Shown in pieces: positions 16,270 through 58,105 of a DNA stretch of 64,000 nt. Numbering within the stretch: position 1 is the stretch's first letter; each line of letters starts with the position of its first letter. The notes below the pieces were generated by a model. That model was not told the origin of the DNA. It searched no databases and saw nothing but the letters and a program-made list of their open reading frames with translations. Origin of the DNA: Pocillopora damicornis (Eukaryota); contig NW_020844017.1 in assembly GCF_003704095.1 (NCBI RefSeq), positions 1-64,000 of the forward strand, in the 5' to 3' direction. The position numbers and the translations under genes were made by a program.

Positions 16270-17367
16270 CTAAACAGTTGTAATTTCTGGTCCACGACTG
16301 GAAACCTTTCGAATCGAGTTGGACCCTTGTCGCAAGCCGTTAGAAATGAAGGTTTCGTCGACTGTAGTCGACGGTAGTGGCCTTAACATGCGCTCGTTTG
16401 CGCTGCGCTCTCTGGAACGTTTAAGGCATAGAATCTTTGAGGTACAAAAAAAATTTTTAAAGGCCAAACGAAAATCCCTGTTCATTCCAGTATAGATCCA
16501 AGGGTTTGCGCATGAAAGCACGTAGGGAAGAAAGACGATGACACCTTGAACTGCAAGTGGAATTTCCTCAGTCGTGAACGCTTCAATGAGAGTTACCACA
16601 AGGAATGGACTCCAGCAAATTATAAACAGACTCACTATGACTGCAAGCATTTTGGTGATTTTTAGTTCTCTGAAGAAGCGTTTTCGTCGTTCAAACGACT
16701 GCCTCCTGTCTTGATCGTAAGACGTTGAGCTAAGTCGTGTGGAGTGCATCTTAGAAATCTGGTGGATGGCTGCCCTGCAGATCGAGATATACGCAAACGA
16801 CATCGTGATTAAGGGAATACAAAATAGCGTCACGAATAGAAATATAACATAGCCTTCGATAACCGTGTAGGACTCATGAAATTGCAGAAAGGAGACTCCT
16901 GCAATGGCCACTGCGAATCCCCAAACCACGGCAATGGAGCGCTTAGCACGAAGCGGTGTCACCATGGTTCTGTAGCGTAGCGGCTTGCTAATGGCACAAT
17001 AACGGTCAATGGAAACTAACGTGGCGTTCACAATGGATGCTGTACAACAGAATGGATCGATCCATTGGGTGCACAAAGCCATCACATAATTATCTTGTTC
17101 CCTTTCAACGTGAACAAGTGATCTTACAAGCCATACCGGCATCGCCAAAAGAGCAACGGCCACATCTGCGGCGGCAAGGGCCACTATGAAGTAATTTGTC
17201 ACCGTCCTCAACTCACGGAATGTGTAAACAGCCATGAATACGAAGCCATTACCAACGACTGTTGCAAGGATAAGCAACAACACGAACACCAGAAATACAA
17301 TCTTTCCGTCAAACTCTGCATCAGCGTCGAGGATATCGTTAGATACGTTGCTGAGATTTCCTTGCAT
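16270..17367 (-). CDS. Class A (rhodopsin-family) GPCR, biogenic-amine-receptor-like, intronless CDS, 365 aa
   Basis: Seven TMs with GN (TM1), LAAAD (TM2), IDPFCCTASI and DRY (TM3), W4.50, FCIPL..Y (TM5), CWSPF (TM6), NPWIY (TM7) and NRDFR helix 8. N-glycosylation sequons NLS and NVS at the N-terminus. Confidence 0.95.
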   Translation of the reverse strand: MQGNLSNVSNDILDADAEFDGKIVFLVFVLLLILATVVGNGFVFMAVYTFRELRTVTNYFIVALAAADVAVALLAMPVWLVRSLVHVEREQDNYVMALCTQWIDPFCCTASIVNATLVSIDRYCAISKPLRYRTMVTPLRAKRSIAVVWGFAVAIAGVSFLQFHESYTVIEGYVIFLFVTLFCIPLITMSFAYISICRAAIHQISKMHSTRLSSTSYDQDRRQSFERRKRFFRELKITKMLAVIVSLFIICWSPFLVVTLIEAFTTEEIPLAVQGVIVFLPYVLSCANPWIYTGMNRDFRLAFKNFFCTSKILCLKRSRERSANERMLRPLPSTTVDETFISNGLRQGSNSIRKVSSRGPEITTV

Positions 17368-19955
17368 CGTTCATGTGACTTCCGACGTTTTTTAAAGGTC
17401 TTGTTGCACTGAAGCAAGAAAAATTTGTCTGTTCATGTAACGTTCCCCACGGATATCAAGTATATAGAGTCCTCGATAGGTAGTTTCTCTGGTCCATCCA
17501 AACTAGCTGTTTTCGCGCTGGTTGAATGTTACTCAACGAGTTGAAAAAAGACACTTTCCTCAAATGAAGATTACGATACCAGAGCGAGAAGCAGAGTGAA
17601 GAAATGTTTCTGTTAGACACGCTTCTATGGTTATAAGACTTTTCCCGTTGTTCTCAGCCAAAGACCTGAAAGTTTACAATAGCGTGATAATGAATTTCTT
17701 CGATCTCTTGAAACTGTTTCACCCTTCTCATGCACAAAAAATGATTTGAAGGCCCTCTGAGTAGAGATTGTATTACTCTGCCCACAGCCTCAGATTTGTG
17801 AAGGTCAAAAAGCTTACCTGCAATTTATATGTTATTGCACAAAAAAAATCACCGCGCACATTTCCGATAGCATAAATATTTCATTGAATTTTCACGTTTA
17901 TAAAATTTGCATAAAAGATGAAGTTTGTGCTGAGGCTTTTGAAAATTACTTCCTTAAAAACAATATCAAATCTCCAAGCGCTTGCCTTTGCTACGTAAAC
18001 ACGAAAAAACCGCCCAGTCGTTTATCATGCAGAAGAAAAATAAAGAGCGAAAGGATTTTCATGATCAACAAATGACAAGAAAGCGTTCCTAAGGATTTAT
18101 TTTGAAACTTCAGCTAAATTTGTGCTTTATTATATTAGCGTTAAAGGCATTATAAGTTGTAAGCTTCAGGCGAAAGTGTTTCAATTTTCTTTTCTAATAT
18201 TATCAAGATCCTATTATCTGTGTTGTTATTAAAACTGCGAAACATGAATTGCACCTGCAATCAAAAGGGCATTTCAACCAGGGATTTTCTCAGAAAATCG
18301 TGTCACGCGAAACTACCTAAATATCCAATATCCGCCGTGTTTCCTTCTTTTGTTGTTGGAGAATACAATCTCAGGAGTCCACAGCGAATTTTATTACTTC
18401 TCTTTATTGGAATTAAATCATAAAATGACACAAAAACAATTCTTCCTGGAGGTTGATAACAGACCACACAAACTATCCATGTAATAACATTGTAATTTAC
18501 AACACAAAGCGAAGCGTTCAAGCAATTTTCAACAGCAACGAATTCGAAGCTCAATTAACCGCGTGCGGTTAACCTGACTTACAAACATAGCGAAATTTTC
18601 CAAATAAGCAGTAATGGAACGAAGAAATGGTCAATTTGATCCAATAAAGGCAATCATAGATGTCAAAATCCCATAAAAATTGAATTGTGTTGTTTTTACA
18701 CAGATTTTATACTCTTCACTTCTACCGCAAAATTCTGTGACAAAATTATTTGCACGTATTGAAAGTGTTTACAATGGGCAATCACGAAGAGTACTCCACT
18801 TGAAACTCTATCAGGACTACACAAGAGTTGAGAACAACTATTTAAGTAGAACGAGCTGCTAAGCCATAATTTCATTGAAAATGTTACAAAGAAACTGATG
18901 CTCTCAAAAACAATTCCTTGTCAATGATCGATTTTTCCACAGGGGTCGTCAACGCAAAGAGAGGAATTTTATTACTCTTAGTGCATTTTAATAATGATCC
19001 CTTCATGATCCATGATGATAATGATTCTTTTTTTTGTGCAAGAAAAGATGCTCCGGAAAGATGGAACCTCTCTGGCTGCATAACACTTTCAATCTTTTTA
19101 AAGTGGATCTGTCAGTTAGAAATTGAGAAAGGGTAGAGATGTCGGCCGATTGTGACTCAACTCAGACATTTATCTTCATTGCTATGCATTCAAGCGCGGC
19201 CGGATCAAAAAATACAAAATCTGCACCATTGATTGCCAGAAAGTACCTTCTTTTATGAAATAGGCTATGAGACATTTCTACCCAGATAGGTTTTATTAAG
19301 ATGGCATCCTGTATAAAGTTCTTCAAATGGTATTGTGATCTGCCATTTTTCCTTAGTTTTAGTTATTGCACAGCAGGTTTATAACAAAAAGTATAATAAG
19401 GAAGATTTTTTAAAAGATCAGAAGAGCTTTGTCTTTGTAGCTGTAATTTTATAGAACAGACAGAAATATGAGAGTACATTTGCATAAGGTTGTTCAAACT
19501 ACAGGCACAAACGCTGTTTGTCGAAGGGTAACGGCACCCAAGAGATTTTAATCTCTAGCGGCACCTGAATGGATAAAATTCAAAGAGCTCTTCCGCAAAG
19601 GTGAAAGCCTTTCCTTCCACGTTCAAAAAAGCCGATCAAGTTTTATCGTGAAAAGGGCAGCGCTCCTAAAAAGCTGAATTAATAAAGTTTCGTAATAGAG
19701 TAACACTTTTACTATTTAAGCTGGTTGTCATCTCTCGCAAAAGCGCTCGTTATATCAATTACAAAATGCAAAAATATTCCGCTATACACTTTAAGTTGGA
19801 ATTCATTAAGTGTATAATACCAACATTTAGCTGTAAACTAATGATTATTATAATAGCAATGCGCTTTCAGTTAGCAACCAATTGGTAGAAAGAAATCCTG
19901 AAGAAATTCAGAAGCGAGTTTTACGCCGGAATTACAGTTATCAGATACATAAAAA

Positions 19956-29700: not shown

Positions 29701-32516
29701 GCGCAGCCTCCTTTTCAAAGAAGAATCAATTTTTCATAAAGTACATTAAAACATTCGTCAATTTTTAAAATTTTAGCGGAAAGTGACGACAGCAACAATT
29801 TCCTCTAATCACTTTGAAATTTCAACAAATTTGGGAAAGTAATCCAAGAAATCAAAGGAAAATTTTTAAACAAGCAGAAAATGTTATCATTTTAATGTGA
29901 TTTCTTACCCTGCTCTTTATTTCGTAATGTTCATTTTTGTTTTGACAAACGGAGTCGAAGATGGAAGCATTATTCATACAATAATCTCTTTTGAAATTGC
30001 TGCCAGCAACAACCATGAATAGCCAAACCATTCTGTAATAAATGGATTATTCATCGACACTAGCCACCAAATATAATTCTAATCGAAATTTCAGCAATTC
30101 CAATTTTCTTCAGTGGGCAGATCTAAGATGTTTTCGTTTTCATGACCGTCCTGGCATGGGTTTTCGGTATCTTTATTATTGTCCATGTTTAAGAGCATGA
30201 TTCATGAGTTTAGGCAATATTTGATTGTCACTATTTGGAAAATTTAACACATTTTTCTTAACCTGAGTCGAGGAAAAAAATGAAATTAAGATATAGAATT
30301 CTCCTATACAAGTTTCACAAAAAATGAAGTTTAAGATGTATTTCAGATTGTAGAAAGAAAAAGAAAGAGACAAAAGATTTTGGTCTTAATAAACTAGTCC
30401 GTCTGCCTTCAGATATATCTCTATTGGGGGTGAATGCCCCCATTTATTGCAAATGATGTGCTCAAGTAATTCAAACAGACTGTTGAAGTTAACCACCCAA
30501 TCAGGATACGAGGACATAAGTGATCCATTCCAATTGTGAATCCTTTTATTACTGAGGAAACAAGCCAAGAAAAGCCGTTTACCTTTTCTTCGGGACTTTA
30601 CGGCGATGTTTTCCTTGCTGTGATCCACAGAAACTTTGGAATAAACTCTTTTTTTTAAAATTTTGCTCAAAATTCCTTTGTCAAACAGAAATTTACGCGT
30701 ACGAAATGGACGTGCCTCTTATCAAGACAATAACAAGACCATGTAATTATGCAGATCCCAGATCTTTGAAAATGAAGCGGATTATCAAGGAGCTTTTTAA
30801 GGAACAGCGAACACAAACTCCTGAGAAAGCCGGTAAATTACCAATTTTATGCCGAAATCACAACAAGGTATTCTCCAATTACTTGTAATTTGAATAGAGC
30901 CAATGCAAAGATTTCATCAACTATTCTGCCCTTATATAAATTCGTGACCTTCTTTCACGTTTTAGCACAAAGGGAAAGTTAAGGAGAAATGTTTGATCTA
31001 CGTGACGATAGCTTTTAACCCAAATAAACGCAGCTGCCGGAGGTTAAGACTTTAAGAAAATACTTCAACGAAGTAATTTTTCTTATCCTTACGTAAACAT
31101 AAGTTGACCGAGGTTAAACGTTTTGTAATGAGGATCATTCATACCATAAACCTTCAGCTACGTGGCTGTTCTTCTTTTCCTGGTAACAGCTCAGAATAAT
31201 CTTAGGCAAAGAATCTTTGATGACAAAGATTACAAACACACCTTTAAAACAGTTCCACTTTAGACCTCAGAGCTTCGTGTCATCTCTTAGGCCGGGAGCC
31301 CATTAGACTTAAAAGCGAGAAAATGAAAACCATCTCGTTGGTTCTAATTTAAAAGCTACAATTTACGCCTCTATTGAACTCTATTGTAAAGGGTCTTAAT
31401 AGGTGTCATTTTCAAGGTCAATTCAAAAACACATTTCTTTTGATAAGAACACTAGTATCTGCTAACGCTATCTTCATTCGTAATAATTTTAACACTGTTA
31501 AGCGCAGCTTCGCACACCATACCGAATCCTCATCACAACGTTTCTTGGAAAGTGACCGTTAATCATAAAATAACATTTTAAAAAACGTTTCGGAGACAAG
31601 TGTCTCCACAGAATAGTATTTATCATCCAAACAACGAAAACTGATGAATTTTTAAAAATAATAAAATTGACTTAGGCAAAGGAAATGTGGGTTTTCTGCG
31701 GTTTTCAGGTGTGCTTTTTTGATCCCGCTTAGCTCTCATTTTTTTCACTAATGAGTCAGACAGCGCCCAGATATAACACTTCAAGATAGTAATCGAGATT
31801 GCAAGAGTGGTATGATAGATAAAAGGGTGATATTCTTGAAAATCATGGCTGGAGAACAAATGAAATTGCTTGAAAGTTAAATTTGGAGGTGCATTTTTAA
31901 TCGGCGCGCGCTAGTCGAGTCTTTACAATAACGCTTTCAGCATTTAACTCTACAAACACGGCGCATCCAAAATTCAAAAAAATTCAAGAGTTTTATTCAA
32001 CAAGTTATCCTCTTTTTTTTCTGGTAAAAGGTGTTCTTTATTTACAGGCAGTGGACGCCTAGAACTAGTTTTTTTCTTGTTATTGACTATTTAGGCAGAA
32101 CCCTTTTTAAGAATAAGTATATAAGTTACTTGCGACATAAATAAAAAAGGTATTTCCAAAAACGAGCCGATTTACTTTCACTGTCATCTGTTAAGCCATT
32201 TTCAATCGTGCTCTTCTCATGCCAGTTAAAGGTGATAAATAAGTACAGATATCTCTGTGCTTTGCAGGTGTGATGTGGGTTTTGATTAATCTACTTGGGT
32301 TCCCTTGAGAACAAAAATGACTGTGTGCCAAGTCAGAGTCTTTAATGTGGACATGGGTAGAAGGGATAAAGTTAAATGAAATGGTTTGAAGAGAAATTGA
32401 ATTACGGAGAGAGCCAAGTGCTAGTAAATTTTGAATCAAAACAATAAATAGGAACAAAGTTATTCTTCTAGCAATTGCAAGTGCAAGGCATTAGGACGGT
32501 CTCCATTAGATGGCTA

Positions 32517-32927: not shown

Positions 32928-35900
32928 CTATGCCTTTCTGTTTCTGATATACTCTGCAATTGATTTATGGCATCCTACCAAAGAATTAAGGATAAATTTG
33001 AACAACCGCCACAGGACAAAGACTACAATCATAAGAGCAAGTGCCAGGGGAACTGCTCCCAAGATGATGATTTCCACGATATGTAGCACAGTCATACAAA
33101 TCTGTTCCTGCGCTGAAAGACCCTCTCCATTGATACCAAGTGCTAAATCAGCCATGTTTATGATCGCCAATAGAAGAAGAGCCGCCAATGATGCTGTTTC
33201 CGCATGATTAACACGTGAGTCCTGGAATGGCTTTTTCCAAATATGGTAGGCAAGAATAGCAGCACACGTGATACTTAAACATACAATCCTTATGAAAGGG
33301 AAAACAATAAAAGTGTGGAGGCAGATCATAACCAAACGTCGAGCGATTAAAACGCTTTCCCAGTACACTGCACCAGCACCGCGGTCGTCGTAAGATTTCC
33401 TGAAAGGGCCATAAAGAACATCTTCTACCATGCTACATGATTTTGCTTGACATTGGTTGAGAGATTCGTCAAAAGAGGAAGACTTCTCAGCACTGTTCAA
33501 TGAGTCTGAAACCCGAAGAAGTGAAGATGTCTCTTCGCTTCTGATAACTATGGCTCCTGAATCTTTGCAAATCCTCCTGTATTTAACGACCCACATTACA
33601 GCGAAAGGCAAAGGAAAGGTGCAACCACATACAAACTGCCCAGAGGATATTGATTTATTGTTAAGCAAATGAGATCCAAGGTACAAGACTAAGACAAATG
33701 GAATAATGAAAACAGTAAGAAACAGTCCGCAAAGTTTCTGCCACCAACACCAGCACTGGACATTTCCATCATAAAAAAAGCGGAGCGTTGATTGAATTTC
33801 AACGCAGTTCAAGGCTTTAAGTGCTCCCCTCGCTAGTGCTGAATAGCCAAGGAGAAGACATTCTGTTGTGGCACTCAGATACTGACCAGAGGGGGGAAAA
33901 GACGGAGATTGTTTATTTATTTTCCTAAGTGCTCCATGAAAAAGGAAAATGATTAGGACACAGAATAGCACAACAAGGACTTGAGAGGCCTCCAAGAATA
34001 TTTTCAAAGTGACTGTGAGTCCACGAATTGGACAGATCAGTGCGTTACTCGAAGAGATAGCTTTAAAGTCGAACCAACCAATTATTGGAGTCAACAAGTA
34101 GTTGTCCTCTAAATGGATCTTAAAGGCTTCCGACATGAATACTAAATTGGCCACCTGATAAAAATAGAAGACTACCTTGATGTATCCACCACCGTTTGAG
34201 GAAGAGGGTGAAGTGCTACTTGCTTGTGTTGTTCTTTTCCATGGCAATAGCCGTTGAATAAGACATATGACTGGATACTTCCAAACAAGGAGGAAAGCAA
34301 ATGTCAAGCTGTAGAAAAAGACGACAAGCCAGAACCAGTAGTCTGCACACTCATCATTGGTTTGACATCGTGAAGAGAAAAGAGTTTCTGTGTAATCAGA
34401 CTTACATTGTCCACAGAGAAACCCAGTACGGTTTCCAGAACAGCCTGAAGACAAATAATTCTGGTTATCATAGGGACAGCTGATGTTTCGATAGGGACAA
34501 CAGTAACCCATCGGACACTCTTTAAAGCCGACAGTGCCGTGATCCGACAACAAAGGAAATCCCCAAAATGTAGGTTTCGCGGCAATATCAGTTGTACAGT
34601 TTCCACCAAATGGGCACGGTCGACACTTTTTGGCAAACGGCTCTACACTGTAGAAACCTGGAGAACATCGTTTGCAACTGAAAATAAAGGACTCTGACTT
34701 GGTGTTAAAAAAGCCGTCAGGACAAGCTTTGTTTGAAACGATACGAGAATGATCGAGATTTACCTCTTTTTTCAATGTTCCAACTGGACACTGAATGACC
34801 GATGTATCATCCATCTTTGCTTTGCTTGCCCCCGCGACCATAACATAAACATCGATGTCCTGAGAGGACTCAACGGAGAGAGTCGTGTTTAATAGATTGA
34901 TTGGTCCTGAACTCGCCCAGTATATGAATCCTGTAAAGGAAGGAGTCACAACTTCTCCATGGATGGTCACTCCATTTTGCCATGTTTTCGTCTGATCAAA
35001 AGATGTGTCGACCAAGTCAAGACTGGTTGAGCCCTCTGAACCAAATAGAGTGTAAGTAGCTGAATTGTCTACAAATCGAACGTTTCTGAGGTTATTGTAG
35101 CCGTTTTCCAAATGCAGGACCGAGGTATCGGCGCTATTTTTGTCAAAGCCAACATTAACGAGTTGGATGTAGTTTTTGTAGATCCATCTTGGAATTTTAC
35201 ACGCCAGAGGATCTTTTTCGTCGGGCGATAATCGAAAGCGTAAGATCCTGCCTTGTATGAAATTGTGTTTAAAGGTTGCCTCTTCCATCTTTACCTTATT
35301 TCCTTCTTTTTCAATATAGAAGAAGACCAACGCTAAGCTTCGGAGAACAGAACTTTCAAACTCATTTGCCGAGAACACTACGTTTCTTATTACAAGTTGG
35401 GCGCCTGTAGACGCCCTAATATCCATGGAGAAATATTGGTTGCTTTCAAAGATCGACTGCGCCAGGGAAAATGTTGAGTTACTTGCTTCATCTGAGCCCA
35501 ATTTAAAAAGCATTCCTCCTCCACTATTGTTTGTGTACAACAAGTCAGTTATGGTTATATTTGCTTTATAAGTTGCGCTCGCGAAGAAATTTACCGGCTT
35601 TCCTGCCAATGTATCATTATAAGCTGTAGTAGGTCTCCCGATATTTTCGGAGAAGTTGGATCTGATTAGGGTGAACTTTAGATGAACGGAGAAAATAAGA
35701 ATGGTTGTCCAGATGTAATGGGAACGTTTATCCTGTGAATTTCCATGGAAATTGCAATCAACAATCGTTACATCTGAATATGAAGCATCCAAGTATAGCG
35801 TTGAGCTTCCCATGTCAACCTTATTATGCAAAAACGAAGCATTCACTAAATTGATTTGAAGGTTAGCAGGCTCTACGGAAACTGTTAGAGTACCACCCAA

Positions 35901-37081
35901 GAGAGAATCCTCGATAAAATTAGGTTTTCGTAGGATGTTTTTTTGAAAAAGAACATTTTCAATCAGAATAAAACCTTTAGCTGCTTTAAAATCAACTGCT
36001 AGGATGTATATCGCTGAGCCATCATTTTTTGCGCTATTTTCCACAAATTTGCACTCTTTAATTTGCAGGTAAAATTTACGGCTGCTCTCAACCAGCATGG
36101 CCCCTCCACTTAGCGGAGAACTATTATTGGTAAAGTCACAATGCACGGCAGAAATATTTACGAGGCCTAACTTCCCGCCAACAAAGACTGCTCCCCCGAC
36201 ATTATGAAGAAACCTTCCTTTGGCCACAGACACGGAAACGTATCCCCACGTTGAATGAAAAGAGTTATGATCTCCAGAATGCGCTTGCGAAATATGGCCC
36301 AAGTACTTAGTTTCTCTGAAATACCTCACTCTACCGCTCACGTTATCAACATTTTTGACTTGCAAACATCCTCCGTTCGGCGCAAAGTTTCTTATGAAGG
36401 AGACATTGTAAAATGTCATAAACGTAGCACACCTTATGATACATGATACCGAAACCATGAACACGGCCACGTCCACCATTTTCACTTTACCTTCCCACGA
36501 TGCGTTATTCTCGCTAAACACCGTATCAAGAACTTCTAGTCTGAGGTAATTCCCAATGACACGGACACAAGGAAGAGAATTGTTGCTGAAAACAGATTTG
36601 GCGATAAGCAAAGAATGGTTCCCATTGAATGTCTTAAAATCAACAACGGCCGATGCGTTTGATAACGATTTAGCACCGATGAAATTACAATTTTTAACAT
36701 AAAGCGAGCTCATCCTAGCCGCGATAGAGCTATCAATAAAAGCAATTCCATCCAGGTAAATAATCACCTTGTCCGATGTGTTTCTGCCATCTAAGGTAAT
36801 TCGCCTCAAAGATGAGCATCTAATGAATACCTTATCTTTGCCGAATCGTCTCAAGGATAAACTTTTGTTGACGTAAATTCCATCTAGCTGCGACGTCGTC
36901 GGTAAGCATGGGTATGGATCACGTGATGTCTCAGTGCCATCAATATAGATAGTATCGTTCCACTGTGCATGTGCAATACCAAGAGCAATAAATTTACATG
37001 CTGTCTTCATTGTTTCACCACAAGAAGGCTGATTGTTACCATGATAGCGAGAGACATAAATTTCTTTACTGACAACCGGCA
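32928..37081 (-). CDS. Large uncharacterised multipass cell-surface protein (beta-helix/Pmp-like repeats, Cys-rich stalk, about 9-10 hydrophobic segments), exon 2 of 2
   Basis: 4154-nt uninterrupted frame after a strong acceptor TTTCTTTCCGTTTTTCGTAG|, phase 1. Repeated FxxN and GGA/GSA motifs, many NxS/T sequons, CxxC-rich region (CKRCSPGFYS, CPMGYCC, CSGNRTGFLCGQC) and a hydrophobic C-terminal third. Confidence 0.92.
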
Positions 37082-37603
37082 CTACGAAAAACGGAAAGAA
37101 AGGCGAAAAATTACCATCACTGAAAACAGCCTCAAAACTCGGACACGGCTGTCCTGCACAAATTGAAATTACATTTTATTTCCTGCTTTTGTCACGCAAC
37201 GTGCCGTGTGACAGGACAAGGATACTATGCAATAATCGATGATCTATCCATTCGCTTTTCAATGTGGCAAAAATGTTGCGAAAGAACCGCTGCACCCCAC
37301 TTACGGCCTTATTAAAGAAAATATAGAATATGACAAGATGTTTGTATATAGTTAGACAGAATCATGATTCTGCTGAGTCGTTTCAGAAACCGAAAGTGAG
37401 GCGATGCAAATTGACGGTACGATAAATTACATCTCGCAATGATCGTGTTATCTTCCCGTAGTATACCGTCTTGATCCTGTGGCTATATATACTTCATGAT
37501 CTAAGGATACCATTAAAGTACAGATGATTAATTCTTAGAGGGATGTAGGACCCACATCGGTCCATTACCGAAACGTTGTTACCGCTGACTCTAATTAACT
37601 TAC

Positions 37604-37679
37604 TTGTATGGAGAATGCACAGGATCAAAATAAGTAGGTTGAAAATGTGACTAATCGACAAAGTTTCCAGAGTTCTCAT
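37604..37679 (-). CDS. Signal-peptide exon 1 of the 1409-aa protein
   Basis: ATG at 37679 encodes MRTLETLSISHIFNLLILILCILHT. The donor A|GTAAG is phase 1 and joins in frame to exon 2 (..HT-M-PVVSKEIYVS), giving a plausible signal peptide. Confidence 0.8.
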
Positions 37680-41135: not shown

Positions 41136-41425
41136 CTGAAACAAAAAGTAAATACAAAGACAGTTTAAACAATAAACTGTACATTTTAAACAGTACAAGT
41201 TTTGTTGGAGTGATTTATAACTCAATTGTATTTGAGGGCATTGACTTTGGCAACTTGCACCACAAGAGGAATTTAACCATCTTACACAGGCATCTTTGAA
41301 CAGAGGCACTTTCCCCCATCTATTTTATTGTATTTAATAGCATCACATCTTTGTATACAGTTGTTGAGCGACTAAAACCTAGCTTTGCATTTTAAAACAA
41401 GAACTGAACAACTTTACTTTCTCAC

Positions 41426-41642
41426 CAGTTGGCAGGAAGGAACACTGTTGGCCTCCCAATGAAACCCTGGGGTGCATACGGGATCCACTGATCAGGGTAT
41501 GGGGCTTGAGCATAACTCGCTGGGGGGAATTGGCCTGTCATATCTCCTGGGATCTGACCTTTAGTGAGCGTGCTCACAGGAGGAAGCACATAGCCAGGGG
41601 CTGTGTTTCCAGCTGGGGGTGAGGTGGCTTGGCCAACATCAC
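41426..41642 (-). CDS. PaxB: PaxB, penultimate coding exon
   Basis: Acceptor CTCTCTCTATGCAG|, encodes DVGQATSPPAG...YPDQWIPYAPQG..LPAN, donor TG|GTGAG (phase 2). Confidence 0.85.
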
Positions 41643-41837
41643 CTGCATAGAGAGAGGGCCCAAAATTAGACATAAATATGAACATCAATGACCTATTTTA
41701 AAACCACTAGATAGTGATCACAACTTTTTACAGAAACTGATTTAAGCACTTCACTTGGTAGTCTAACAATCCTAGATATATCAGAAAAAAAATTTCTCTT
41801 TTCCTATTATTTAACTATTCCACCCAATGCTCACACC

Positions 41838-42048
41838 TTAACCTTTTCACTTCCATGATCTCTTTAGTAATTCTCCTTACTGTCTGGCATACATTGCTTA
41901 TAATTTCAGTTTGGAGAATTTGATATGGAATCAAATGATAATCCACTAATTGATATTTTTCTACATTCTCATCACTTGTCTTCTTGAGATTGTATTGATG
42001 TTGTAATGGGAAATTCTGTCTTGGCCACTACTGGGGGTGGAAGGGTTA
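41838..42048 (+). mobile_element. TTAA-MITE family copy in PaxB intron
   Basis: Termini TTAACCTTTTCACTTCC ... GGGGGTGGAAGGGTTA, colinear with 42382-42572. Confidence 0.7.
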
Positions 42049-42136
42049 CAACTCATATTGAATGAAATGACCATTTGTTCAGAGAAACACTTTAATCTAC
42101 ATTGAGAATGCAAAAATATGAATGCTTTGTTCTTAC

Positions 42137-42178
42137 CACCACCACTTGTGATAACGCGCTGATACTGTATTTGGCTAC
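42137..42178 (-). CDS. PaxB: PaxB, 42-nt symmetric (phase 1-1) microexon
   Basis: Polypyrimidine acceptor CTTTTTGTTGTCTCTAG|, encodes (R)SQIQYQRVITSGG(G), donor G|GTAAG. Frame-preserving. Confidence 0.65.
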
Positions 42179-42381
42179 CTAGAGACAACAAAAAGTAACA
42201 GAACATGAGCAAAACCTATCATTACAAGATTAAAACAAATTACTCCAAGCAGTTGAGTTTGAAATCTGTCTCTTAAAATGTATGTCACTTTGGAATAATT
42301 CTGTGTTGAAATCACAGAGGCCTACTTCTATTAATTGCAAGTTTGAGTTATAACAAGAGTACTTAAAGGAACTCAAATACA

Positions 42382-42745
42382 TTAACCTTTTAACTTCCAG
42401 ATCAAATTTGTAATTCTCCCTCCTGTCAACCACACCATTCTTATCATGTTAGTTTAGAGAATTTAGTATTGAATCAACTAATTATCCCTGAATTGATATT
42501 TTTCTTAATTCTCATCACTTATCTGGTTGATATTGTATTGATATTGTAAGGAGAAATTCTGTGTTGGTCATTCCTTTAAATCCCATGAGTGACTAAGACA
42601 GAATATCTTGTTACAATATCAATACAAAAGCAACCAATTTGGGGATAATTCTTTGATCCAAAACTAAATTCTCTGAACTAACTTTATAAGAATTGTATAG
42701 TTGACAGCAAAGAGAATTACAAATTTGATCTGGGAGTAAAAGGGA
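42382..42745. mobile_element. Two adjacent TTAA-MITE copies in inverted orientation
   Basis: 42382-42572 (CCTTTTAACTTCCAGATCAAATTTGTAATTCTC...) is followed directly by a reverse-complement copy at 42573-42745 (...GAGAATTACAAATTTGATCTGGGAGTAAAAGG). Confidence 0.8.
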
Positions 42746-43549
42746 TAGAGTGCATTCTTTTTAGTGTTAAGTTCAAAGGTCACTCAGTGGTACTCCAGAG
42801 TGCATCTTTATTGCAGATTATCTTACGCATTGTTATCAATATAGCTGAAGCTTTCTAAAAATTCAATTTACAAAGTTCACATAAACAAGCAATCCTTTAC
42901 AAAAGTGTCCCTTCCAAAAAATTAACTCAGAACAGTTTTCAGCACAGAGTAAGAAACAATCATCAAAACACAGGAATTTTTCAAGAGTTCCAAAAGGTGA
43001 TCATGGTGACTAAAGGATAGTTTGAGAAACTGCTTCCCTCAATAAGTAGGGGCCCCCAATTTTTGGTTTTAAACTTTGAGCTCCTGTGAGATACGTGTAT
43101 ACAAATACATGAACATTTTTAAGCAGATAAAAGGCAAAAATTAACAAAACGTCTTGACATGCAGTAGGTAAACACAAACTGCAGTTAATTCTTAAAAGAA
43201 ATGTCAGTGTTATTGTCAGTTCTTCAGTCAAAGAAATAGTAGAGCTCAGCTTCATCAAAATTGTCCTCTTAGGAGGACATTGCAACCATCAAATAAAGCG
43301 AGATGCTTCTCTTTAATGAGCTTTCACAAGCACAATGTTTTACAAGTTTCCTGAAGACAAAAGTAGGTTGCCTTTAACACTCTGGCTCTGAAAGAGTATA
43401 ATCCTGTTTCTTGATAGTTATGGGTGGGTAAGTGTATATGTGGGGTTTTTTCCACAGAAAGGCATATAGATTAGTGCAACAAGCATCAGCAAATATGTTG
43501 AACACTAAGTAGTCACGCAAACAGAAAAATAGGTGTAAAAAAAGCTTAC

Positions 43550-43895
43550 GTGATGCATAGGAGGGTGAAGTTGTCATAACACTTTGGCCAACAGTAGAAT
43601 ATCCAACTGAGGAATTGTTACTACTAATTGGCTGTGACTGGGTGTGGTCACTGAGGCGCATGGTGTACCCCTGGCCATTTGACATGGGATGAGATGATTG
43701 CACTAGGTTGCCGCTTGGCACAGCAATAAATGTTGGGCTGTGCGTTGGCACTCCTGAAGGTCGCATCATGTCATAAGATTGCTGTTGAGGCGGGGGTGGG
43801 GCTAGGTTTGGGATGCCCATGGTGGTGTGCATGGTTGTCAGGCTGGGATCAGACACTGGTTTCAGTTCTGTCAATTCTGCTTTCACTGGAGCATC
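43550..43895 (-). CDS. PaxB: PaxB, P/S/T-rich transactivation region exon
   Basis: Acceptor GACAG|GAT, open frame DAPVKAEL...TTSPSYAS, donor C|GTAAG. Phases fit the neighbouring exons. Confidence 0.85.
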
Positions 43896-44490
43896 CTGTC
43901 AACAACAAATATATGACACTCAGCCTATGTTTGCACCTTTACCTGATTGAGACAACTATAAAATTTTACATAACAACATCAAAAAAGAGACAAGTGCTTG
44001 TTAAATACCTCTGCAAATTTAAAATTTAACATTGATTGGACACCAAATGCCCCCCGACCAATGGAATCTAAATATATTTTCCCGCACAAACTAGTTCGAT
44101 TTATGGAAAAGAAAGTGGGGGTACTGTTTGACTATTAAAAAAAAAATTCAGCAGATAACCACAAGAAAGGAAAAGCACCCAGCAGTAAAGAGAGAAATGA
44201 AACAACATGATCCTTTGTCACAAAATTTTGATGCAATTTCCATGAAATAGATGGTGAATTAAGGTTTCAGGTCTTGTAGTTCTAGCCAACTTTAATGTAG
44301 ATTTGCTTTGAGCCTAATTTTTTTCTGCCACATTTAAGTGCCACTGATTGCTTTTCTGGTATTTTTACTGGAGGTGTTAAGTTTTGGGCTGCCTTCTACT
44401 GACACTTTTGGTTACAAATAGACCCCAGTTTTCTCCTCTCACTAGGCTCTCAATTTCTCCACACATGAAGTTGTTAAGTATAGAACTTAC

Positions 44491-44706
44491 ATCATGGACT
44501 TGACCGTACTGATGTGAGTGAATGTTGTCATCTTGAACTGGGGTTGGTTGGTTAGGAGGAGGGCTGATAACAGTGGTGGGGTATCCATTGGCTGTGTTAA
44601 TAAAAGTTGTTGGCACAGTCTGGGCAGGACTTGCTGCTGTGGGACTTCCAAGAGGAGGCACTTTTTCTTGCTTCCTCCACTTGGCTCGGCGATTGGAGAA
44701 CCAAAC
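44491..44706 (-). CDS. PaxB: PaxB, homeodomain helix 3 end and Pro/Thr-rich region
   Basis: |VWFSNRRAKWRKQEK gives Ser at position 50 (Pax type). 216 nt, donor GAT|GTAAG. Confidence 0.95.
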
Positions 44707-45818
44707 CTATAGATAAGAAGAGGGAATAAAAATCTGGGGAACAGCAACTGAAGTTGACAGAAAGCTGACAAGAATGAGGACATGACACAAGGAAACAGTA
44801 GAGTGGAGGCCACTGAATTAATCTAACCAGCTTTGCAGTTCACAGTGGCTTTAGAAGGAAGCACAAAAGATAACAAAATAAGGTTAAATTGAGATAAAAA
44901 TTTCTGATAAGGCAGACAAGTTGGGTTAATTGCATAGCAACAAACTATAGGTCATAATCTAACAAGAAATTACTCAGCCTCCATAAAAGTATATTTTGGT
45001 CTAGGCTGTAAAACTATAAAAACTCACAAATCAGTGTTACAGGTTAAACATTTCTCATACAAAAAATATACAGCTATAAAAAGTAACTTGCATAGACATA
45101 TAAGAAAAATTAGAACAGGTTAAATCCATCACTGCTAAGCTGGAAAGTCAAAATTATGGTGAGGTTAAATGAAGGTGAAAGTAAAGAAAAAGGGAGTTAC
45201 AGATGCAGAAATACCTCTCACTAACCAAGTTCAAGGTCCTTATTGTAGGGTACAGACCAAGAAAACCAGGATAGTAAGATACTTATTATATGTCTGGGTT
45301 CAAATAGTGGGGAAGATTTCACTTCAACAAACATTTGAGTTTCAGGGGCTGTATGGTGAAATACAGCCCTCTCAAGTGACCAATTTTAGCCCAAAAACAT
45401 ATTTAATGTCCTTTTTTTATTGAGGTCCATCCTCTCACATATTTACTAATCTTTTTCTTTATGGTTTCTCAATGAAAACAAATAATAGCTCAAAGTTTCT
45501 AGCAAGGCCAAATGGGCTTTTCTTTTTTGAAAACAGAAATTTCCAAACCATGGATAAAAACAACATTGCAAGTATTTGATTTTGCTTTGCTGTATAATAT
45601 TTTGAATTACATCTCTTGGTAAAACTTCTTTGTTTTCTCAATGATGATTTCTGTTGTTGATTAACCAAGACTAACAATTTGTAAATTATTTTTTAGTTGT
45701 GTCAAGGACATACTCTCAACAAAAATGGACAAAATCCCTCTTCTTTGGAGACTAAGGAAGTTATAACACTGCATCATTTTAAGACCCTTTTCCAGCATAA
45801 CAGCAATGACTTTAGTAC

Positions 45819-46030
45819 CTGAATCCTTGCCTCAGAAAGATCAACATCTTGTGCAAGCTTTTCACGAGTAAACACATCTGGATAGTGTGTCTTCTCAAAA
45901 GTCTTTTCTAGTTGTTCAATCTGTTCTCCAGAGAAGGTAGTGCGTTGACGGCGTATTATCTTGCGACCATGAATATCTGTTGGTGAAGTTGCATCCCCTT
46001 CTGCTTGTACTTCTTCTTCAGAATGACTCC
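45819..46030 (-). CDS. PaxB: PaxB, homeodomain residues 1-46
   Basis: [46 protein letters not shown]| with a phase-0 intron between Q46 and V47, the diagnostic PRD-class position. Not in the ORF track. Confidence 0.95.
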
Positions 46031-47142
46031 CTATAAAGATAAATGCAGTGAAAAATTTGGTTTAAGAAACTTCTAAACTAGAAGAACAACAGCAAGAATT
46101 TTACAAGTTTTTGTAAAGCAATTGTCTCAATGTTACTAAAGATTCATTCAAGTACAACTCCTAGAAGTTATTAACATGTAACTTCTCCCTACAACATTCA
46201 CACATTATTCTCTCCCAATGTAATGAGAATACTCAAACTTATAGGATAGAAGGCACTACCTTGAACCAACACCAAATTCTCATAACTAATTTAACATTAA
46301 GATCTTGGGAGTTCAAAAGGTTTGTAACACAAATATTTTATTTGACTTACTAATTGTGATACTTATTATACTTTTCTTCATTATACTGATATCACTCCAC
46401 TTTTTGGGAGAATTATCATACAATAATCTACTACTTTAAGTTAAGTACCGACAAAAGATATATAATCAAAAAAACCCTTCCACTAAAAACTGTTAAGCCT
46501 GATTATGTAAGAACAGTAAAGTGGATTGCTGAAAAAATGTTTTTTTCGTATTGGTAAATTAATTGTATAAAACTTTTACATGTGACAGGTGACCCATCTG
46601 ACTGATGCTATAAATTAATTATAAACTGCAAATTGATCTAATTGAACTAAATTAATTTTGGCGCTTATAAGGAGCAATAGAAACAATTTAAAGGTAATGT
46701 CAAGGGATGATACACTATATCACTCGATGTTCCTAGTTTTATAAATTATTTTTAGTAAGATTCAAACATTACTATCTAAATATTTTCCAAACTATAGTAG
46801 TTAGCCTTAAAAGCAATATTCTACTCGAATATTCTTATCGAAGGTTTACTACAAAGGTTTCATGCCCTTACTATGACGACTAAAATTCTTAACAAAGCCT
46901 CACATACTCCCAAATTCTTTCTAGTCTATCAGCTGACTGAGGAAAAAAATATTTTGTGCGTACGAAGGTAAATTTTGACTGTCGAAAGGTTGTATAAACA
47001 AATTTTCGCGCGCGCGCCAACGATGTAAGTAGCATATCCTAAAACGCATGTGCAAAAGGTCAACATAGGGTATAGTGTTTCCTCACGACAAGTTAAGATT
47101 CCATCACACAACTTCAAACTTTGAATAAAAGACAAAACATAC

Positions 47143-47715
47143 CTGTGCTTTCTGTACTCTCAACTGAGTGCTTCCTCTTGCTGGGTGGAACAGAATTCGC
47201 TTGATGAGGTCCCATTCCAAGAATTCCGCTGATTGAATACGAAGTCCGCGGCATATGAACACCGCTTTCAACTTTTACATCTCCACCGTTAGAGACTTCG
47301 TCTTTTGTCGGGCTCATTTTATCGCCGCTGTTGATACGATTTCTAACAATTCTGTTAATAGAGCTGACACTGGGAACATTGTCAGTTGTGCATACACCTT
47401 CGCTCAGAAGTCGATCCCGAATCTCCCAAGCGAACATAGTCGGATTTGCTCGCTTGTAGTCCGCGATCTTATTAACGACGGGACCTGTTGCTACCTTGGG
47501 CTTGCTTCCACCGATAACACCCGGCCGAATGGAGCCAGTCTCGTAGAATCTGCACAAAATCTTGCTCACACAGCCGTGAGAAACCCTCAACTGTCGCGAT
47601 ATGTCACATGGCCGCACTCCACTCTGAGCCAACTCAACAATTCTCTGTCGAACAACATCAGGTAGTGGCCTTCCATTAACGAACAACCCTCCGAGTTGGT
47701 TAACCCCTCCGTGTC
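47143..47715 (-). CDS. PaxB: PaxB, paired domain and octapeptide exon
   Basis: [20 protein letters not shown]...[15 protein letters not shown]...[11 protein letters not shown] with the Pax2/5/8-type Q42/R44/H47 residues, then octapeptide YSISGILG. Acceptor CATAG|, donor G|GTATG. Confidence 0.97.
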
Positions 47716-47791
47716 CTATGAAGCAGTAAAAATGCGCTCAGGTTGTACCTTCGGGTTTTTTTTGCTACAGACTACAACACTCATTAACTAC

Positions 47792-57269: not shown

Positions 57270-58105
57270 AATTTAGTTCTTTGCCGTTAACATTCTTCTA
57301 TCCTTCAAAGCTTTTTGGGGGAATTATCTTATCCTTGCTGCGTTTTATAAGGAATCTTTGCTTTATCCGCTGTTTAAACTCTTTTATCGCTGTCTGGAAA
57401 CAACTGATCTATTTGTCGGTCTTATTACCCAAACTCTATATGCCACTCGTTGGACATCCTTGGTTAAACAAGACTGGAATCTTTGTCGATGCACTTACGA
57501 CGCAGCCTACATCACAGGTTATACGTTCTGTTCTGTCTCTTTGCTGACCACGACGGCCATAAGCGTGAACAGACCTCTTGCCGTGTTTTTGGGACTGAAT
57601 TACAAACAAATCGTAACACTGAAGCGCGTATATGTTGCTATAGCTATCTTTGGGCTGCATGTGGTGTTGCAGCCTTATGCCATATTTTAGATTACCGTAT
57701 AACCTTCTGGTATGGTTGTCCAATTACACTATTTTGTCTTGTCCTTTCAATCGCCTCGTACACAAAGATTTTTCCGCGCTCTCAGTCAGCATCGCGCTCA
57801 GATGCAAAGTCATGTCCAAAAACAGCCGAGCCCAAAAAAACATATTGAATATCCCGCAGTACAGAAAGGCAGTGTACAGTGCCTTGTGGGTACAGTTGGC
57901 TTTAAGTATTTGTTTTTCGCCTCATAGCTAAGTGGTAATTGTGATCACCGCTTGTACAACACATTCAACTACTAATATCGTTATTGAGGAAATAATGTCA
58001 GGTTTAGTTTTGTTTAACCCTTTTTTAAACCAGTTTCATTACTGCTGGAGATGACTGAGGTAAGATAAGCAGTAAAGCAGACAACTAGACAAGCACTTTG
58101 CTATC
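57270..58105 (+). pseudogene. Class A GPCR pseudogene (coral-expanded melanocortin/adenosine-receptor-like family)
   Basis: Consecutive fragments in different frames: KESLLYPLFKLFYRCLETTDLFVGLITQ.., AISVNRPLAVFLGLNYKQIVTLKR, WAACGVAAL..SIASYTKIF, RALSQHRAQ, YRKAVYSALWVQLALSICFSP, NPFLNQFHYCWR. At least 3 frameshifts, in-frame stops and decayed DRY/NPxxY equivalents. Confidence 0.85.

Follow-up and report, generated by a model that had tools for sequence, protein, structure and literature searches.

A two-exon gene of Pocillopora damicornis predicted to encode a beta-helix ectodomain on a nine-helix membrane domain, one member of a large coral family

In this study, we analysed a gene on the minus strand (32928..37679) of a 64,000-nucleotide (nt) stretch of the coral Pocillopora damicornis (NCBI RefSeq assembly GCF_003704095.1, contig NW_020844017.1, positions 1 to 64,000; hereafter the window), which is eukaryotic DNA with about 36-41% GC. 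The gene has two exons and is intact, and its product is best explained as a secreted-pathway, N-glycosylated cell-surface protein belonging to a large coral family with many paralogues. By analogy with fission-yeast Pkd2, we tentatively propose that it may be a tethered sensor, in which a rod-like ectodomain binds extracellular glycan or matrix and gates Ca2+ entry through a Pkd2-like membrane domain.

Domain organisation of the predicted protein

Joining the two exons (76 + 4154 nt) gives a protein of 1409 amino acids (aa) with a single stop, the length given in a preliminary description of this DNA, which had also noted, correctly, a separate signal-peptide exon and the placing of nearly the whole protein in one 4.15-kb exon. 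A 1415-codon open frame runs from 32928 to 37175 on the same strand, and two alternative in-frame acceptors would give proteins of 1403 or 1433 aa. The exon choice made here is supported by a RefSeq protein of Stylophora pistillata (P0002), which can be aligned with the entire sequence (residues 1-1409), is 79% identical and has the identical signal-peptide start. Four candidate polyadenylation signals (AATAAA or ATTAAA) lie at 31901-32346 on the minus strand, 0.6-1.0 kb downstream of the stop codon. The gene and its product are laid out as follows.

Exon 1, 37604..37679, minus strand: 76 nt; start codon (ATG) and the larger part of the signal peptide (aa 1-25; hydrophobic aa 12-30), followed by a phase-1 intron with donor GTAAGT
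Intron, 37082..37603, minus strand: 522 nt; GT...polypyrimidine-AG, frame kept
Exon 2, 32928..37081, minus strand: 4154 nt; entire mature protein and stop codon
N-terminal ectodomain cap, 36768..37067, minus strand: aa 31-130; conserved Cys and Asp residues
Right-handed parallel beta-helix rod (fold inferred), 34998..36767, minus strand: aa ~131-720; FxxN coils and many N-glycosylation sequons
Rod-end linker, 34683..34997, minus strand: aa 721-825; D783 and CP790-791 conserved
Cys-rich stalk, 34338..34682, minus strand: aa 826-940; 16 Cys, the first being C828 and the last C937
Membrane domain, 33003..34337, minus strand: aa 941-1385; nine transmembrane (TM) helices, N-out/C-in, as predicted from the AlphaFold2 model, family hydropathy and lysine/arginine (K/R) bias
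Predicted TM helices: TM1 941-958, TM2 990-1006, TM3 1049-1075, TM4 1090-1115, TM5 1138-1166, TM6 1263-1283, TM7 1287-1308, TM8 1314-1342, TM9 ~1352-1385 (aa)
Extracellular beta-hairpins in the AlphaFold2 model: aa 1118-1134, between TM4 and TM5
Predicted cytoplasmic re-entrant pair of kinked helices, 33588..33650, minus strand: about aa 1170-1190; P1182 invariant
Cytoplasmic loop, 33372..33587, minus strand: aa 1191-1262; long, Ser-rich and poorly conserved, with a conserved GPF motif at its end
Cytoplasmic C-tail, 32931..33002, minus strand: aa 1386-1409 (24 aa)

The ectodomain very probably folds as a beta-helix, judging from its motifs and its homologues. Residues 31-830 contain 17 FxxN motifs, where shuffling predicts 4.2 +/- 1.9 and 0/2000 shuffles gave as many as 17; the motifs are mostly spaced 24-42 residues apart and follow a hydrophobic-x-hydrophobic strand. 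The FxxN repeats noted earlier are therefore enriched, but only two canonical GGA(V/M) are present (positions 321 and 351), along with the variants GGCL, GGTL and GSAI. In chlamydial Pmps, FxxN and GGA(I/L/V) tetrapeptides are described as markers of beta-helix coils (PMC11166332). Among 35 aligned family members, 13 match Pfam Beta_helix (PF13229) and five match Chlam_PMP, and POMP_repeat is above the cut-off in two of seven tested family proteins. The beta-helix proposed in the preliminary description thus gains from both the FxxN periodicity and the Beta_helix matches. When a profile of 143 sequences, with ectodomain columns from homologues only, was compared with the PDB, the matches had E values of 2e-5 to 8e-3 and included GH110 alpha-galactosidases (2e-5), Rhombotarget A (2e-4) and lacto-N-biosidase (3e-3), whose chains are presumably all beta-helices.

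Over 98 homologues, 64 rod columns (aa 131-720) are conserved at 70% or more, and the residue in each is one of N, F, G, L, A, C, V, S and I, never D, E, K, R or H; no acidic residue inside the rod is conserved at 60% or more. Some Asp and Glu residues of the rod are conserved within the 30 closest homologues only. Because the conserved rod columns include no catalytic-type residue, the rod is more likely to bind than to act as an enzyme. The cap is better conserved than all other segments of the ectodomain apart from the stalk (in close homologues, 65% vs 40-49%), with D68, D73, R79, D80 and Y82 conserved. The stalk, with its 16 Cys, is the Cys-rich module previously noticed between ectodomain and membrane domain. 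In the window protein it resembles Ephrin_rec_like (E 0.016) and DUF7630 (E 0.11), both below the cut-off, and DUF7630 is matched by 17/35 family members.

AlphaFold2 was given residues 826-1409 and 81 sequences, and returned a model of stalk and membrane domain with a predicted local distance difference test score (pLDDT) of 88.4 and a predicted TM-score (pTM) of 0.87, in which the stalk is compact (pLDDT 82-97). The model and the charge pattern show by computation a predicted membrane domain of nine TM helices plus a re-entrant hairpin, which refines the "9-10 hydrophobic segments" counted earlier while leaving the multipass nature as it was. The family-averaged K/R content alternates loop by loop, as an N-out/C-in arrangement with a cytoplasmic re-entrant pair predicts. 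The re-entrant pair has K/R-rich loops on both flanks, a helix break in the model, where it spans 1172-1190, and conserved P1182 (100%) and P1184 (94%; n=143), and the Ser-rich loop that follows has the lowest pLDDT of the model and low alignment occupancy. No recognisable signalling domain was found in the C-tail (aa 1386-1409); in 142 homologues, the median length after the P1370 column is 49 aa.

Hydrophobicity is lowest in TM2, TM4 and TM6, conservation is highest in TM2 and TM6, and in TM6-8 the conserved face is the polar face. In 143 sequences, Q1001 (100%), N1317 (99%), R1274 (97%), P1182, W1266, R1273, K1052 and Y1105 are conserved at 95-100%. The three motifs quoted from this domain in the preliminary description are all present, GYIKVVFYFYQV at 991, YWESVLIARRL at 1265 and KKPFQDSRVNHAE at 1308.

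A large and divergent coral family

The gene is one ordinary member among the many paralogues of a large family, although no paralogue lies elsewhere within the window. With stalk and TM domain as query, 375 proteins were found among 7999 candidates, the named ones being from Stylophora and Oculina patagonica (nine named entries of the latter), and the TM domain alone gave 1246 clusters at 50% identity (E <= 0.001). The TM alignment includes eight Oculina paralogues with identities of 31-89%, which are distributed over several deep clades in a 36-sequence tree. The architecture is fixed: among 281 stored proteins, 216 have at least 500 residues before the TM domain; at least five FxxN are found in 196 of these 216 and the stalk motif in 201. 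Even a very divergent, Ala-rich member (P0281; 23% identity over 939 columns) keeps the motifs of cap, stalk and TM domain. A protein of 3995 aa (P0122) has six matched stretches and about three TM domains per chain, and is either a genuine concatemer or a set of tandem paralogues that gene prediction has joined.

Compared with a 97%-identical protein (P0001), the window protein differs at 31/910 ectodomain positions and 3/390 positions of the TM part (p = 0.004), and its identity to an Oculina protein (P0013) is 46% in the ectodomain vs 68-70% in the membrane part. These comparisons show that the ectodomain evolves faster than the membrane domain.

In the literature searched, subscription papers and supplements being outside its scope, no publication describes the family, whether from corals or from other animals, and a full-text search for the identifier PTHR11319 returned no paper. 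A PANTHER PTHR11319-type "PmpC-related" bin collects eukaryotic Pmp-repeat multipass proteins and probably includes the family, for which an automatic catalogue entry may thus exist. The main text of a published Pocillopora receptor survey does not contain the terms "pectin", "Pmp", "beta helix" or "TRP". The earlier view of a functionally undescribed family therefore agrees with the lack of a publication, but the gene is not a one-off, since it has many paralogues.

Comparison with FLC/Pkd2 and other multipass proteins

A relation to FLC/Pkd2-type proteins, which carry Pfam TRP (PF06011; transient receptor potential) and TRP_N (PF14558) and include S. pombe Pkd2 and yeast and Cryptococcus Flc1, had been suggested in the preliminary description. 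Two weak leads, one from language-model features and a separate one from structure, speak for it together with a matching nine-TM, N-out/C-in topology, but the PF06011 hidden Markov model (HMM) is unmatched, and we consider the membrane domain likely to be a distant structural relative of FLC/Pkd2 and not a PF06011 member. With ESM Atlas features of the TM part of the Stylophora orthologue, clusters scored 0.93-0.96, with PF06011 in 10/30 unfiltered hits; when hits were confined to named clusters, 14/30 had PF06011, and the top cluster, with a score of 0.96, has it in 25% of its members. The labelled members of these clusters are few, and are haptophyte, ciliate or oomycete. In a Foldseek search of BFVD (predicted viral structures), the top three of 399 rows, all Megaviridae proteins, had probability 1.00, E values of 3e-3 to 3e-2 and a TM-score (TMt) of 0.45-0.48, and one of them is labelled "Transient receptor potential ion channel" (E 0.02, TMt 0.45). 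Two GPCR-named rows (G-protein-coupled receptor) score 0.07-0.12.

S. pombe Pkd2 is reported to have nine predicted TM helices, N-out and C-in, beneath an extracellular cap (10.1101/2022.08.11.503631; PMC9727806), and its TM domain is not replaceable by human polycystin domains (10.1101/2022.08.11.503631). Like FLC/Pkd2 proteins, the coral protein has a signal peptide, an extracellular N-domain on a predicted nine-TM domain, and a cytoplasmic C-end. Unlike them, it carries an 800-aa beta-helix rod (fold inferred) and a Cys stalk in place of a 150-aa immunoglobulin (Ig)/ML-like domain, and it belongs to a large and diverged family, whereas FLC/Pkd2 proteins are encoded by few housekeeping genes. 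The TRP_N cap defines most FLCs (PMC9600462); neither TRP_N PF14558 nor PF02221 was matched in any of our scans, the ectodomain consisting of FxxN repeats and the Cys stalk.

The three viral proteins (A0A5J6VI06, A0A5J6VHI1 and A0A5J6VLW6, from a Megaviridae environmental sample) have a similar predicted membrane fold in 284-416 aa, without a long ectodomain, which suggests that the membrane domain may have been taken up by giant viruses.

The protein is not a seven-TM GPCR, because nine TM helices and a re-entrant hairpin are predicted; the window protein lacks both DRY and NPxxY, and a regular-expression search found no GPCR proteolysis site (GPS)-like motif in the 281 stored homologues. It has no 7tm Pfam match, whereas a true GPCR nearby gives E 1e-48 in the same scan. 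The absence of these three motifs and the non-standard membrane domain had both been pointed out before. Adhesion GPCRs share with it a big modular ectodomain over a multipass domain, and an extracellular disulfide and hairpin between TM helices, but the coral protein has neither GAIN/GPS nor the seven-helix count. A canonical six-TM TRP channel or polycystin is excluded by the nine helices and by the cytoplasmic re-entrant segment, which departs from the S5-S6 pore-loop plan; no TRP-box or GYG motif was found. Chlamydial Pmp passengers also have FxxN and GGA(I/L/V) at their beta-helix coils, but a chlamydial-type autotransporter is excluded, as the C-terminal domain is alpha-helical and of eukaryotic type rather than a beta-barrel, no NCBIfam match was found, the gene is spliced, and canonical GGA occurs only twice.

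The combination of 7-9 TM helices with an ectodomain of beta-helix or adhesin type is already known from DGF-1 of T. cruzi and the bodonins of Bodo saltans. Both are described as multi-copy surface glycoproteins with 7-9 TM helices, and DGF-1 has a beta-helix ectodomain, made of seven 390-aa ribs and an Ig-like hat domain, whereas the coral protein has one rod and a Cys stalk. DGF-1 Pfam families were absent from all scans, and the DGF-1 architecture was compared from papers only.

Possible function

In the sensor that we tentatively favour, the rod, rigid and non-enzymatic, would bind an extracellular polymer such as mucus, matrix or microbial surface glycan. Binding or pull would be passed through the Cys-rich, disulfide-rich stalk to the conserved extracellular disulfide and hairpin face (C1042, C1118, C1135, W1139 and Q1140), and this signal would open a polar pathway of TM2, 4, 6 and 8, as the least hydrophobic and best conserved helices, to which K994, Y998, Q1001, Y1105, W1266, E1267, R1273, R1274, N1317 and E1320 would contribute. 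Ca2+ would enter through this pathway, by analogy with stretch-activated fission-yeast Pkd2, which is reported to pass Ca2+ in vesicles on membrane stretch (PMC9727806). Paralogues would differ in the ligand of the rod. A stronger version seems to us quite unlikely. In it, microbial or algal glycans would be recognised by variable rods, and these would directly gate a nine-TM unit of FLC/Pkd2 class that is permeable to Ca2+; the proteins would then be a large coral family of ionotropic pattern-recognition receptors, differing from canonical TRPs in channel architecture, and could serve fast sensing of symbionts, prey or pathogens.

Several points weigh against the sensor and the kinship behind it. 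Many of the conserved intramembrane residues are basic (K994, K1052, R1273, R1274 and R1290; n=143), and conserved basic residues are unusual for a Ca2+ filter. The window protein itself matches no beta-helix Pfam in the Pfam scans, and a second profile, with the window ectodomain included, finds just a PL6 chain at E 0.26. The faster change of the ectodomain fits ligand diversification and relaxed constraint equally. The PF06011 HMM matched 0/1, 0/14, 0/41, 0/49 and 0/35 family proteins in overlapping sets, one of six families for P0246 not being visible in the 49-protein scan. All BFVD matches are above E 0.001, with a root-mean-square deviation of 11-12 A, and "TRP" is a database label; the calibration of the Atlas scores was not measured for parts of proteins. 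The likeness to fungal FLC/Pkd2 comes from published descriptions and indirect leads, and not from direct alignment of sequences or models. Furthermore, the authors of the Pkd2 work state that single-channel recordings are lacking (PMC9727806), and FLC proteins were first described for import of flavin adenine dinucleotide (FAD), going by a title cited in PMC8778642.

Alternatively, the protein could be a non-conducting adhesion receptor of adhesion-GPCR or bodonin type, in which a ligand on the rod would change the shape of the nine-TM domain and so act on a partner protein that docks, in the cytoplasm, at the WE..RR, H..PF and N..E motifs and the re-entrant hairpin. Most of the conserved TM-domain motifs do lie at cytoplasmic helix ends, a large variable ectodomain and many paralogues are typical of receptor families, and bodonins are described as adhesin-like surface proteins with about 7 TM (PMC4728078). 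We nevertheless regard it as rather unlikely, since the tail is short and has no kinase or other signalling domain, the GPS motif is missing, and the nearest lead, Pkd2, has reported ion flux. It is unlikely that the protein is a structural adhesin or coat protein like DGF-1 or the bodonins, with a TM domain serving mainly as anchor or in trafficking and a rod by which cells would adhere to mucus, skeleton matrix or prey. An anchor needs no nine helices with invariant buried polar residues (Q1001, N1317 and R1274), and conservation within the protein is strongest in the membrane domain, although DGF-1 likewise combines a signal peptide with beta-helix ribs, a linker domain and 7-9 TM helices (10.64898/2026.07.27.741050), and chlamydial Pmp adhesion maps to side loops of the helix (PMC11166332).

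A transporter or lipid handler in the FLC sense (flavin, haem or lipid, perhaps in the endoplasmic reticulum (ER) or endosomes), with a luminal rod catching cargo, would suit the conserved basic membrane residues and the re-entrant hairpin, if the substrate is anionic, and FLC genes came from a haem-uptake screen and were tied to FAD import, again going by a title cited in PMC8778642. This reading is improbable, as it leaves many divergent paralogues with variable rods without a reason, and the sequence of the tail shows no evident signal for ER retention. Very improbable is a sensor or transporter that carries, tethered to the membrane, an enzyme cleaving glycans (pectin-lyase, GH110 or GH136-like): the family profile matches GH110 and lacto-N-biosidase, and 3/35 members have a pectate-lyase-like Pfam, but the conserved rod columns are all of structural residue types, and the same profile matches Rhombotarget A, which we take to be a non-enzyme.

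Work on FLC/Pkd2-type proteins concerns fungal genes whose products carry a small Ig-like cap, and an animal family with a similar nine-TM unit and a variable beta-helix rod would extend this class to animals, the many paralogues per coral genome supplying new candidate surface sensors. The high-confidence model and the invariant intramembrane residues make ion conduction by the class directly testable.

Other features of the window

A multi-exon Pax gene, which we take to be PaxC-like, lies at 41422-47737 on the minus strand and ends ~3.7 kb upstream of the studied gene; its paired box (PF00292, E 4e-71) is in the exon at 47114-47737, and its homeodomain exons are at 45774-46061 and 44377-44706. 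The true GPCR mentioned above is a single-exon, rhodopsin-class gene of 366 aa at 16270-17370 on the minus strand (7tm_1, E 1e-48), and further rhodopsin-class sequence, spread over two frames at 57277-57848 on the plus strand (7tm_1, E 6e-9), is probably a pseudogene. A Get2/CAML-like first exon is found at 6078-6764 on the plus strand (PF14963, E 8e-4, below the cut-off). Runs of N, which are assembly gaps, at 849-1543 and 2420-3573 adjoin fragments at 2602-3573 and 4053-4508 that are presumably reverse-transcriptase-like, the latter having no Pfam match. A minisatellite at 7748-8017 consists of 10.8 copies of a 25-bp unit with 96% matches.

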